DNA from: Nitrososphaerota archaeon
GTDB taxonomy: Archaea > Thermoproteota > Nitrososphaeria_A > Caldarchaeales > Caldarchaeaceae
Direction of reading: 5' to 3'
DNA length: 64,000 nucleotides
Assembly: GCA_041641305.1 (NCBI GenBank)
Contig: JBEPYN010000001.1
Location: forward strand, 384,001 to 448,000
The notes beneath the pieces are model-generated. The model worked only from the letters and a program-made list of their open reading frames with translations. It did not search any database and had not been told where the DNA came from. The position numbers and the translations under genes are program-made. This document shows positions 38,694 through 47,109 of the stretch, piece by piece. Position 1 is the first letter of the stretch. Every line of letters begins with the position of its first letter.

Positions 38694-38736
38694 TGATATA
38701 ACGTCTTAGCGCAAAATAAGCTTAATTCATGTGTAG

Positions 38737-38810
38737 TGGGCCGGGGCGGACTTGAACCGCCGACCTCCACCGCGTCAGGGTGGCGTCATACCAGGCTAGA
38801 CCACCGGCCC
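38737..38810 (-). tRNA. tRNA-Val(GAC), no intron, CCA not encoded
   Basis: GGGCCGG acceptor stem, anticodon arm CCACC-CTGACGC-GGTGG, T-arm GGCGG-TTCAAGT-CCGCC. Confidence 0.95.
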
Positions 38811-43192: not shown

Positions 43193-44626
43193 ATGGATGC
43201 GCCACATAGAGCGGCGTTATCGCGAGGGATGGATGAGGACGCGGCACGCTACACATCATCCGCGGCATTCGACACAGAAATTTACGAGACCACGGTTTAC
43301 GTCAACGCGGCCCACATCAAAATGCTCGAGAAACAAGGCCTCCTAAACAGGGAGTCGGCGGAAAAGGCTCTCACAACCCTGAGACATCTTCTCCAAACTC
43401 GGCAAACACCACCACCCACAGTAGAGGATATCCACATCTATCTCGAGCAACTTCTTTCCGAAAAAGCACCCGAGGCCGCTGAGATGCTCGCTCTCGGCAA
43501 AAGCAGGAATGACGCGGTCGTCGCGGCCGTGAAAATCGAGGTGAGACGTAGAGCATACAAAATCGCTGATATGGCGCTCGATGCTGTTGAATCGCTTGTG
43601 AGGAAAAGCGGCGAGCATGCGGCCACGGTTTTCCCTGTTTACACCCATCTCCAGAGAGCCGCTCCCGCTACGTTCGGGTTTGTTTTACAGTCCTATGCAA
43701 TCCGCCTACTGAGGTGCTGCAACTCACTTCTCACCATGCTTGAGGCATGTGAGGAGTCTCCCCTCGGCTCCGCGGCTGTTGCGGGAACATCCGTGCCCGT
43801 GGACCGCGAATACATAGCTCAGCTCCTCGGGTTTAGGAGAACGAGCTTGAACGCCCTTGAGGCCACGGCTTCCCGCGAATTTCTTACCCTAGTTCTGTCT
43901 CCTCTACATGTCACAGCCTTGGTTCTATCCTCATTCGCTGAGGAGATTGTTCTCTACGCGTCGGAGGAGTTCGGCCTCATCCAGATACCTGAGGAGCTCG
44001 CCGCCACCAGCAGCATCATGCCGCAGAAGAGAAACCCCGTCGTAGCCGAGATAATGAGGACAAAGGCCTCGGAGGTGCTGGGGCTTCTCGCCACGGTTTC
44101 GGGGATTTTGTCGCGGCAGCCGAGCGGCTACAACCTTGACCTACAGCAGGTGACTCCGAAGGTTTGGCAGGCTCTAAGAGAGGTTTCTGAAAGCCTCCAT
44201 ATGATGAGAAAACTCGTGGAGAAAATTGAGGTTAACAGGGAGAAGGCCTGGGAGGCCTGCGCCCCTCCCACGGCCGCAGTCGAGCTCGCAAACCACCTAA
44301 CCCTGAAACATGGAATAGGCTTCAGGAAAGCACATCAGATAGCGGCGAAAATCAGCCGAAGCATCGCCGAACAAAACCTCACACAGGAGAGGCTCGACAC
44401 AATCTTCCAAGAGCATGGGCTAAAACCACTATACGCAATCGGGGAAGTTCTTTCTCTGATGAACCCAGACGCCGCCGTTAAACGCTACACGGCACCTGGC
44501 TCGGCAAACCCAACCATGGTCTCCGAGAACGTTGAAAAGCTCCTCAAAACGGTTGAGGAGATTAGAAACCGTGTAGAAGTGGAGCGGCGTGTTCTCGAAG
44601 ATTGTTTAAAGAGATTGCTGAGCTGA
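43193..44626 (+). CDS. argH: Argininosuccinate lyase
   Basis: SRND, YTHLQRA, SSIMPQKRNP, YNLDLQ. Confidence 0.95.
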   Translation: MDAPHRAALSRGMDEDAARYTSSAAFDTEIYETTVYVNAAHIKMLEKQGLLNRESAEKALTTLRHLLQTRQTPPPTVEDIHIYLEQLLSEKAPEAAEMLALGKSRNDAVVAAVKIEVRRRAYKIADMALDAVESLVRKSGEHAATVFPVYTHLQRAAPATFGFVLQSYAIRLLRCCNSLLTMLEACEESPLGSAAVAGTSVPVDREYIAQLLGFRRTSLNALEATASREFLTLVLSPLHVTALVLSSFAEEIVLYASEEFGLIQIPEELAATSSIMPQKRNPVVAEIMRTKASEVLGLLATVSGILSRQPSGYNLDLQQVTPKVWQALREVSESLHMMRKLVEKIEVNREKAWEACAPPTAAVELANHLTLKHGIGFRKAHQIAAKISRSIAEQNLTQERLDTIFQEHGLKPLYAIGEVLSLMNPDAAVKRYTAPGSANPTMVSENVEKLLKTVEEIRNRVEVERRVLEDCLKRLLS

Positions 44627-45688
44627 GTCCATCTCTCTGACGAACTCCACATATATCTGGGCCGCTGTCATGATGTCTTTTATTTCGACTGCTTCGGCGG
44701 ATGTGTGGGCTAGGGTTGAGTCGCCGGGTCCGCATGCAACGATGTTGGGTGTCACGGCTACGAGTGTGTTCATGTCGCTTGTCCCAGTTTTCTTCACGAT
44801 GCGCGGCTTCAGCCCCAGCCTGAGCATAGCCCTCTGAAGCGCTCTCGCAGCAAGGTTGTTCACGTTGGTGACCACGGGCTCTGTCACGTCGATGACCTCT
44901 ATCTGGCAGTCAGCTATCTTCACGAACTCCTCCAGCTTTGACAGTATCTCCTTCGAGCTGTATGGATGGGGGAACCTGATGTTGATGCTTCCCTCGGCTC
45001 TGTCAGGTATTCTGCTCACCCAGTCACCAGCGTGAAGCGTTGTGAGGGCGGAGGTCACCTCCTCATACCTCTTCCCGCCATAGTGTTCTTCTACAAGTTT
45101 CCATAAATGGAGAATTTTCTCGAGAGCCGATTCGGCGATGTAGGGAGCTGAGGCATGGCCTCCACGCGCTTGGGCCCTTATCTTTACGCTCAAGCTTCCT
45201 CTGTATGAGAGGGCGATTCCAGTTGTCCCGGTTGGCTCGCCTATGATTATAGCGTCTGCTTCGAGACCTTCTTCGACAAGCTTCTTAGCACCGTAGCCAT
45301 TGCCCTCCTCATCCACCAGCCCGGCAACTATGAGGCGGATGTTTTTCAGTTTTGATGCGGCTGCGCTTCCTGCGAGAAGCATGGCTGAGAGAGGGCCTTT
45401 GGCGTCAACCGCGCCTCTGCCATAAACCTTGCCCTCGGAAACACGGACACGAAGCTCCCCGGGAACGGTGTCAACGTGGCTCACCAGCATAACCGTCCTC
45501 CCGCCACTTCCCGCGGCCGCGAAATAGTTGCCCACCTCATCCCGCCAAAAATCTCTGTAACCAAGGTCGCTGCAGACCCTGAACCATGTTCGCTCAAGCC
45601 TACGCTCCTCCCCCGGCGGTGTGTAAACTTCGAGAAGCTGGACAAGCGTCGAGACCGCTGTCTCCCTGTGGATTTCCACCGCGTTCAA
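44606..45688 (-). CDS. lysK: [LysW]-lysine/ornithine hydrolase (M20 family)
   Basis: SHVDTVPG, GRGAVDAKG, DEE, GTSDMN, GPGDSTLAHT. Confidence 0.9.
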   Translation of the reverse strand: MNAVEIHRETAVSTLVQLLEVYTPPGEERRLERTWFRVCSDLGYRDFWRDEVGNYFAAAGSGGRTVMLVSHVDTVPGELRVRVSEGKVYGRGAVDAKGPLSAMLLAGSAAASKLKNIRLIVAGLVDEEGNGYGAKKLVEEGLEADAIIIGEPTGTTGIALSYRGSLSVKIRAQARGGHASAPYIAESALEKILHLWKLVEEHYGGKRYEEVTSALTTLHAGDWVSRIPDRAEGSINIRFPHPYSSKEILSKLEEFVKIADCQIEVIDVTEPVVTNVNNLAARALQRAMLRLGLKPRIVKKTGTSDMNTLVAVTPNIVACGPGDSTLAHTSAEAVEIKDIMTAAQIYVEFVREMDSAQQSL

Positions 45689-45771
45689 TCCTTTTTCCAG
45701 AAAACTTGGTGAAACAGTTTTGTATTAAGTGTTTACGCAACCCTTTTAACACCAGATACGATTGGATAAGC

Positions 45772-47109
45772 ATGGCGGATCGTGTCAAAACCGTGATCAT
45801 GGGAGCCGCGGGACGTGACAGGGCCCTTCTCTGAAGGCCCCACGATTTCCATAACTTCAACGTCTTCTTCCGAGGTAACGAGCGATATGAGGTTGTGGCG
45901 TTTACGGCAGCTCAGATACCTGGCATAGCTGGACGCGTTTATCCCCCTACACTCTCTGGCCCACTCTACCCCGACGGCATACCCATATATGATGAAGAGA
46001 GGCTTCCAGAAATAGTTGAGAGACATGGCGTCAGACTTGTTGTGTTCTCCTACAGCGACCTTACCCATGTAGAGTTGATGAACAAGGCTTCCAAGGTCCT
46101 TGCGCTGGGTTGCGACTTCATGCTTCTAGGCCCGCGCTCAACAATGCTCAGGTCAAGGAAGAAGGTTGTAGCTGTTACGGCTGTGAAGACCGGTGCTGGG
46201 AAAAGCACAGTATCGCGGCTGCTCGTCAAGCTTCTCAGGGAAAAGGGTGTTAAACCCGTTGTCGTCCGCCACCCCATGCCATATGGCGTTTTAGAGAAGC
46301 AGGTCGTGCAACGTTTCTCCAGCCTAGACGACCTTGAAATTCACAGATGCAGCATCGAGGAGCGGGAGGAGATTGAGCCGCATCTCCGAGAAGGCAACAT
46401 AGTCTACACAGGCGTCGACTATGAGATGGTTCTCAGGGAGGCTGAAAAAGAGGGTGATGTGATTGTCTGGGATGGTGGAAACAACGACCTGCCCTTCTAC
46501 TGGCCAGACCTCCACATAACCGTTGTAGACGCGACACGGCCTGAACTGATAACCAACAGCTACCCAGGAGAGGCCAACATCTACATGGCCGACGTAGTAG
46601 TCTTGCACAAGGTTGACAAAGTTTCGAAGGAGCAGCTCGACAAAGCAGTTGAGATCGTGAGAAGCTTGAACCCTAGGGCGGAGGTCGTATCCACGGCTTC
46701 CAAGATACGTATAGAGGATGATGCATCGCTTAGAGGACGAAGGGTCGTCGTGGTAGAGGATTCGCCGTCGGTCACACACGGTGGGATGAGTGTGGGAGCC
46801 GGCTACATAGCAGCCGTAAACGCGGGCGCATCAATCGTCGACCCACGGCCCTACGCCGTCGGAACCATAGCCAAACTATACCGAGAATATACTCATCTAG
46901 GGCCGGTTGTTCCCGCTCTGGGCTACACCGAGGAGCAGTTAAGAGACCTTGGCGAAACTCTCAGGAGAGTCGAGGCAGAGATGATAGTTTCCGCGAGCCC
47001 CGCCGATTTCACCAAGTTAATAGATTGTGGGAAGCCTCTTGTTAGGGTGTGGTATGATGCTGAGCAGGTTTCGGGCACGCCGTTGTCAACTTTTCTCAGA
47101 AGGCTGTAG
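45772..47109 (+). CDS. COG2403 P-loop protein (cDPG synthase-like; putative arginine synthetase ArcE); spliced join 45772..45819 + 45847..47109, 436 aa
   Basis: MGAAGRD|FHNFN restored by removing 27 nt; AFTAAQIP, TGAGKS, RHPMPYG, WDGGNND. Confidence 0.8.
45820..45846 (+). other. 27-nt BHB pre-mRNA intron containing an in-frame TGA
   Basis: GGA-CGTG-AC^A-GGGCC...GGCCC-CACG-AT^T-TCC, a canonical helix/bulge/4-bp helix/bulge/helix. Confidence 0.85.

Follow-up and report, generated by a model that had tools for sequence, protein, structure and literature searches.

A predicted tRNA-type intron within the coding sequence of an arcE-like gene in Caldarchaeum and a sister genus

We consider it highly likely that the arcE-like pre-mRNA described here carries a BHB intron that is removed by EndA and RtcB, was gained once, and has been kept for splicing competence. 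The decisive support for this predicted intron is comparative, and comes from the position, structure and sequence variation of the insert in 14 genomes. The term “window” refers throughout to the whole stretch of 64,000 nucleotides that was analyzed (contig JBEPYN010000001.1, below also C1, positions 384,001 to 448,000), and coordinates are those of the window unless a contig is named.

The interrupted gene and its BHB motif

The arcE-like gene lies on the plus strand and is read in two pieces. Exon 1 (45772–45819) begins with an ATG at 45772 and contributes 16 codons by sequence and translation (MADRVKTVIMGAAGRD), while exon 2 (45847–47109) consists of 420 codons plus a stop and encodes a member of the arcE-like/COG2403 P-loop family. 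Both open pieces are in the same frame, and the unspliced frame translates as MADRVKTVIMGAAGRDRALL followed by a stop, which is the TGA at 45832–45834 that terminates the reading after 20 codons. This TGA is located within the 27 nt predicted to be excised (45820–45846), as defined by the rule that cuts fall after the second base of each bulge. Excision gives IMGAAGRD/FHNFNVFF, where the slash marks the junction, so that the interruption falls between codons 16 and 17. The predicted nucleotide junction of the spliced mRNA is CGTGAC/TTCCAT, within GGACGTGAC/TTCCATAAC, and the spliced ORF has 436 residues, of which the N-terminal peptide MGAAGRDFHNFN is encoded only when exon 1 is included.

The complete hBHBh' motif spans 45811–45850, as judged from folding, the RNAalifold consensus and covariation, and is of the strict type that the archaeal splicing endonuclease takes as its substrate. 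It is composed of an outer helix (GGA at 45811–45813 with TCC at 45848–45850), a central helix of 4 bp (CGTG at 45814–45817 with CACG at 45841–45844), two 3-nt bulges on opposite strands (ACA at 45818–45820 and ATT at 45845–45847), and an inner stem (GGGCC at 45821–45825 with GGCCC at 45836–45840) that is closed by a 10-nt loop (45826–45835). The first-pass annotation had placed these helices, bulges and stem, together with the ATG and the TGA, within 45772–45850, and all of them are present in the sequence just as it described. Its further claim, that the cut removes 45820–45846 and with it the TGA at 45832, is confirmed, and the same rule brings back the reading frame in all 14 genomes that carry the insert. 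The minimum free energy fold of the single sequence almost gives the BHB, with an unexceptional energy (z = -1.0), and an Rfam search of 45500–46100 returned no known RNA family.

A TATA-like box (TTTTAA, 45744–45749, plus strand) is found about 22–25 nt upstream of the ATG, and each of the three orthologues examined, this genome among them, has a comparable T/A-rich box 22–23 nt before its start codon. The transcript is probably leaderless or near-leaderless. On the other side of a common 83-nt intergenic region is lysK (44606–45688, minus strand), which is divergent from the arcE-like gene. Minus-strand ORFs at 45600–45860 and 45733–46068, and a further one in the window at 45586–45771, are mechanical ORFs lying, on both strands, over the intron and the intergenic region; they lack homology support and are probably not genes.

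Comparison of exon 2 with Pfam and NCBIfam gave weak cobW and ZigA P-loop matches and nothing better, and the family assignment was therefore drawn from homologues and the literature. The full-length identity to archaeal and bacterial homologues, Thermococcus included, is 51–57%, and identity to loci titled Thermococcus sp. is 51–53% over residues 1–418 (TK2200 itself is not in the comparison). Solved chains of cyclic 2,3-diphosphoglycerate synthetase (cDPGS) match partially, over roughly 110 residues (E = 3e-14 to 7e-5), and database labels for the arcE-like/COG2403 family read either “GTPase” or “cyclic 2,3-diphosphoglycerate synthase”. The arginine synthetase ArcE of Thermococcus kodakarensis is TK2200, a COG2403 member whose homologues are widespread, are labeled “GTPase”, and have a distant, low similarity to cDPGS (PMC11032458). 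This description matches the labels and the weak cDPGS similarity found here, and on that basis, together with the ∼52% identity to Thermococcus homologues, we assign the gene as arcE-like, i.e., as a putative member of the arginine synthetase family. In agreement with the same report (PMC11032458), the protein would be distinct from true cDPGS. The gene sits between lysK and lysJ and adjoins argH, a setting that is compatible with arginine metabolism but is no proof of an ATP-forming arginine/citrulline conversion.

Conservation, covariation and history of the insert

The order was sampled through 75 species genomes, 40 of which have the arcE-like gene. An insert between the Asp and Phe codons of GRD/FHNF occurs in all 12 Caldarchaeum genomes (genus g1, the present genome counted) and in both genomes of the sister genus g3, and is absent from the 26 other gene-bearing genomes of the order (genera g2, g6, g8, g9, g10, g11 and g14), which read IMGAAGRDFHNFN. 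In other phyla, archaeal and bacterial, 75 of 75 complete loci have an uninterrupted GxxGRDFHNF. The first-pass annotation had called MGAAGRD/FHNFNVFFR the conserved N-terminus of the family, and this holds for the 75 complete homologues as well as the 26 intronless relatives. Its proposal to check orthologues for the insert is answered by the 14 of 14 genomes of g1 and g3, which also contain compensatory changes, and its central claim, a BHB intron within a protein-encoding gene other than cbf5, is supported by the conservation and covariation across these 14 genomes.

The inserts are 23 (five genomes), 24 (two), 25, 26, 27 (two) and 30 nt (three) in length. Half of them (7 of 14) are not divisible by three, which makes translation through the insert, or read-through of the TGA, impossible; a translated insert with TGA read-through was accordingly rejected as a candidate reading. 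All 14 have a canonical hBHBh', and cutting in silico after the second base of each bulge yields AAGRD/FHNFN. Translated in the frame that the 5' splice site dictates, exon 1 gives M..R[VI][KR][TV][LV][IV][ML]GAAGRD in every one of the 14, including those with intron lengths off the multiple of three. Exon 2 is an intact ORF of 419–425 codons in the 13 complete intron-bearing genes, with protein identities of 54–89%, which rules out gene decay. The closest relative (89% identity) matches BAJ51159.1 of Ca. Caldiarchaeum subterraneum. An 88% identical arcE-like protein is encoded by CAZDUB010000020.1, from a MAG labeled “uncultured Elusimicrobia”; its flanks are Caldarchaeum-like, and it is probably a mis-binned Caldarchaeum contig.

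Covariation was tested on the alignment of the 14 intron-bearing genes. Standard pairs fill 95% of the cells, versus 32–57% when the partners are slid by 1–3 columns, and the central-helix cells are 100% paired. Five pairs have changes on both sides, and the covariation score was matched by none of 500 shuffles. The outer helix is 3–4 bp long, with an invariant GGA and UCC, and the inner stem is 5–8 bp long, with both-side changes in four of its six aligned pairs. Compensatory swaps are seen in the central helix (CGUG with CACG to CGCG with CGCG) and in the inner stem (GGGCC with GGCCC to GAGCU with AGCUC, or to GGGUUU with AAACCC). RNAalifold, unprompted, gives the same hBHBh' as its consensus. 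The exon strand of the central helix includes the Arg codon; eleven genomes use CGU, which pairs with A, and the other three use CGC, which pairs with G, so that a synonymous change in the exon is compensated by the partner base in the intron. For this Arg, CGY is used by all 14 intron-bearing genes, versus AGR in most intronless ones, and Gly and Phe are encoded by GGA and UUC, respectively, in 14 of 14. The choice of Arg, Gly and Phe codons is thus tied to the BHB, i.e., the coding sequence is co-constrained by RNA structure.

The motif by itself carries little weight. A strict, all-Watson-Crick BHB scan was run on both strands of the 1.66-Mb genome and on Markov-random genomes of the same composition, and gave 6 matches in the real genome versus 5–15 in the random ones; the motif is thus no rarer than chance and is not enriched, with a chance of ∼3e-6 at any given position. 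Admitting G-U pairs and longer spacings gave thousands of matches genome-wide. When the scan was restricted to BHB motifs that join two ORFs, 1841 candidates were obtained with G-U pairs allowed, a set that is uninformative without homology, and 14 with all-Watson-Crick pairing, among which the arcE-like intron is the clearest. The bare motif was rejected as evidence in its own right, since its genome-wide count is at the level of random sequence. The arcE-like BHB stands out from chance in two respects: it is in exact register with the conserved junction of the protein, and 13 further genomes retain it.

A maximum-likelihood tree built from exon-2 proteins groups the 13 complete intron-bearing genes in a single clade (UFboot 85; SH-aLRT 92; 87% of bootstrap trees). 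The simplest reading is a single gain of the intron in the common ancestor of Caldarchaeum and g3. Alternatively, the gain may have occurred in the ancestor of the family, followed by loss in g2, and the intronless arcE-like genes of g2 also have the CGC Arg codon. Retention under selection for splicing competence would best explain the persistence of the intron.

Public protein records bear out the expectation of the first-pass annotation that automated annotation would truncate the gene. Every Caldarchaeum record in the protein searches either starts at an internal Met or Val (360–409 aa), starts in the intron (e.g., MKKLREFHNFN..., 430 aa), or is partial, and the Ca. C. subterraneum reference lists it as a hypothetical protein of 403 aa (BAJ51159.1; genome of PMC3082918). 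Such truncated or hypothetical records lead metabolic reconstructions to under-call an arginine synthetase-type enzyme, and archaeal gene finders should include a BHB-aware step.

Splicing machinery and alternative readings

Profile searches of the genome identified two EndA paralogues (PF01974, above cut-off) of 182 and 185 aa, which correspond to the two-subunit type, as well as the ligase RtcB (PF01139). For the close relative Ca. C. subterraneum, the genome paper lists 13 tRNAs with introns, whose BHB motifs occupy both canonical and non-canonical positions, and describes an endonuclease of the heterotetrameric type (PMC3082918). The RtcB open frame (975 codons; contig C1, 535991–538729) is unusual in that Pfam positions 1–50 and 46–426 are matched ∼1.4 kb apart, in frame, and this interruption is most likely an intein inside the RNA ligase.

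In the mechanism that we propose, the pre-mRNA would fold locally, with the exon 1 bases GGA CGU G, from the Gly-Arg-Asp codons, pairing to the intron's 3' end and to the opening bases of exon 2 and forming the 4-bp central helix with a 3-nt bulge on either side. This BHB would form about 40 nt from the 5' end of a leaderless transcript. The two-subunit EndA would cut each bulge behind its second base (C45819 and T45846), RtcB would seal GAC/UUC, and the 27-nt intron would be freed, probably as a circle. Only the spliced mRNA would then encode the full 436-residue protein with its invariant GAAGRDFHNFN N-terminal motif. We infer the cleavage, ligation and circularization steps from what is established biochemically for EndA and RtcB. 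Since the genome encodes both enzymes, there is a strong inference that arcE-like expression depends on them. Splicing is most likely constitutive, and the suggestion of the first-pass annotation that it could be a regulatory step is speculation. A more ambitious reading, which we regard as unlikely, sees splicing as more than the routine disposal of a selfish insert and makes it a gate: the amount of active enzyme would be set by EndA/RtcB activity, or by whether splicing or the first ribosome is faster, and arginine and energy metabolism would thereby be coupled to the condition of the RNA-processing machinery. Taken with the further candidate introns of the genome, cbf5 among them, tRNA-type mRNA splicing would then be routine in Caldarchaeales.

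A spliced or continuous form was sought in public sequences. Among the 120 best protein matches and the listed members of ten clusters, there is no Caldarchaeum-like protein of ∼436 aa with a continuous N-terminus. Likewise, a degenerate pattern for the spliced junction found no Caldarchaeum-like spliced or intronless form in metagenome contigs among the 80 listed of 105 matches; apart from a few very short fragments, these 80 proved to be intronless homologues that belong to other taxa and have at most 63% identity.

Three readings without splicing were weighed against these data. In one, exon 2 by itself supplies the enzyme by way of an internal start such as the GTG at 45895, and exon 1 with its hairpin is a leader peptide or an attenuator-like 5' element. 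The public gene calls, all of which begin internally or within the insert, are as this reading would have them, and the hairpin lies no more than about 75 nt from the probable 5' end. However, a start at 45895 drops GAAGRDFHNFNVFF...YEVVAF, which is kept in 75/75 complete homologues and 26/26 intronless relatives, and the FHNFNVFFR codons upstream of the annotated start are conserved in frame. Moreover, exon 1 encodes the missing motif in the BHB-cut frame in 14/14 genomes, and a generic hairpin has no need of a compensated 4-bp helix flanked by two 3-nt bulges. We therefore think it quite improbable that exon 2 alone supplies the enzyme.

Still less probable is translational bypassing as in phage T4 gene 60, in which the peptidyl-tRNA(Asp) would leave the GAC codon at 45817–45819 and land on the GAT at 45844–45846. 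The last three bases of the intron are indeed GAT, a synonymous Asp codon, here and in two other genomes, and the gap contains a hairpin and a stop codon; but 11 of the 14 orthologues have GAA or GAG (Glu) at this point and so offer no landing site for tRNA-Asp, the stop lies apart from the take-off codon, and it is the BHB geometry rather than the take-off/landing pair that is conserved. A decaying pseudogene or an assembly artefact might be suspected from a stop in frame or a frameshift close to the 5' end and from the truncated or “hypothetical” state of some records, but is hardly credible, given that 14 assemblies, independent of one another, and dozens of additional MAG records contain the insert. 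Exon 2 has no second disruption over the range of identities given above, the gene is the sole copy in the genome (4 contigs, 99% complete, 1.66 Mb), and the structure-preserving substitutions indicate selection. An intron excised by EndA and RtcB is thus the reading that we prefer.

Known archaeal mRNA introns and further candidates

BHB introns in pre-mRNA are known from cbf5 of Crenarchaeota (Watanabe 2002; Yoshinari 2006; Yokobori 2009, PMC2738675) and from HVO_1309 of Haloferax volcanii, where the intron is in the 5' UTR (Schwarz 2020, PMC7714728), and a review states that there are “at least two archaeal genes... more remain to be discovered” (PMC10485636). In the freely searchable literature, cbf5 has the only BHB intron inside an archaeal coding sequence and HVO_1309 is the only other mRNA case (PMC2738675, PMC7714728, PMC10485636); neither the present gene nor Aigarchaeota is mentioned there.

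The arcE-like and cbf5 introns are alike in being short, of the tRNA type, and located within coding sequence at a conserved motif. They also share a hetero-oligomeric EndA (the predicted endonuclease in the arcE-like case), a lineage-specific presence or absence, and genes that are mis-annotated as split or frameshifted. They differ in that the cbf5 host is an RNA-modification enzyme (a pseudouridine synthase) of Crenarchaeota, whereas the host here is a metabolic enzyme of Aigarchaeota/Caldarchaeales. Many cbf5 motifs are relaxed (PMC2738675), in contrast to the strict hBHBh' here, which follows an exon 1 of 16 codons, and splicing of cbf5 has been shown experimentally, whereas that of the arcE-like intron is predicted from sequence comparison. 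The HVO_1309 transcript is likewise an mRNA substrate of the tRNA splicing endonuclease (a role that is predicted for the arcE-like one), with the intron near the 5' end of the transcript. However, that intron is in an untranslated leader and leaves the frame uninterrupted, while the arcE-like intron breaks the frame; its enzyme is a homodimer, and its excision has circRNA-seq and in vitro support (PMC7714728). The tRNA and rRNA BHB introns of Ca. C. subterraneum (Nunoura 2011, PMC3082918) are in the same genus and have the same motif, presumably the same enzymes, and comparable sizes, but their hosts are stable RNAs, and the genome paper is silent on introns in protein genes (PMC3082918).

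The arcE-like case adds a metabolic gene and a new archaeal lineage to the tRNA-type introns in coding sequence, and its comparative support is unusually clean, with six intron lengths and compensatory changes in 14 genomes. Very probably, the insert is real and the mRNA is spliced, which would make this a new host gene and lineage for a known type of intron. In eukaryotes, HAC1 and XBP1 mRNAs are spliced through cleavage by IRE1 and ligation by Trl1 or RtcB. This splicing resembles the arcE-like case in being non-spliceosomal and carried out by protein enzymes, with a short intron, a change of frame and sealing by a tRNA ligase; it differs in its endonuclease (IRE1) and recognition motif, and in being a regulated stress switch.

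Further candidate introns were observed in the same genome. In cbf5 (contig C1, about 76583–77616), two frames are split at the catalytic GHGGTL/DP motif by a 14-nt insert whose context is a relaxed BHB (outer CGGGA with TCCCG, central CCCT with GGGG, 3' bulge AAA). Deleting AGCAATGTGGGGAA gives GHGGTLDPAVSGVLP, which restores the catalytic GTLD/P site; a cbf5 intron in an aigarchaeote is absent from the 2009 survey (PMC2738675). On contig C2, a 61-nt BHB insert (457459–457519) separates 81 from 522 open codons, and its removal restores the Walker A motif of an XPD-like helicase (LLEGPTGLGK/TAPVW). Given the 14-nt cbf5 and 61-nt helicase introns, the organism appears to process mRNAs by BHB splicing, and with these further candidates, tRNA-type mRNA introns in archaea are probably much more widespread than the literature shows. 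ARAGORN found no tRNA introns in the window, where the only tRNA is tRNA-Val (38736–38810); in the genome as a whole it reported several tRNA genes with introns of 10–34 nt, as well as three dubious calls with “introns” of 2–2.8 kb. Finally, a strict, all-Watson-Crick BHB insert of 66 nt is located in another gene on contig C2 (454032–454097), ∼3.4 kb upstream of the helicase insert.
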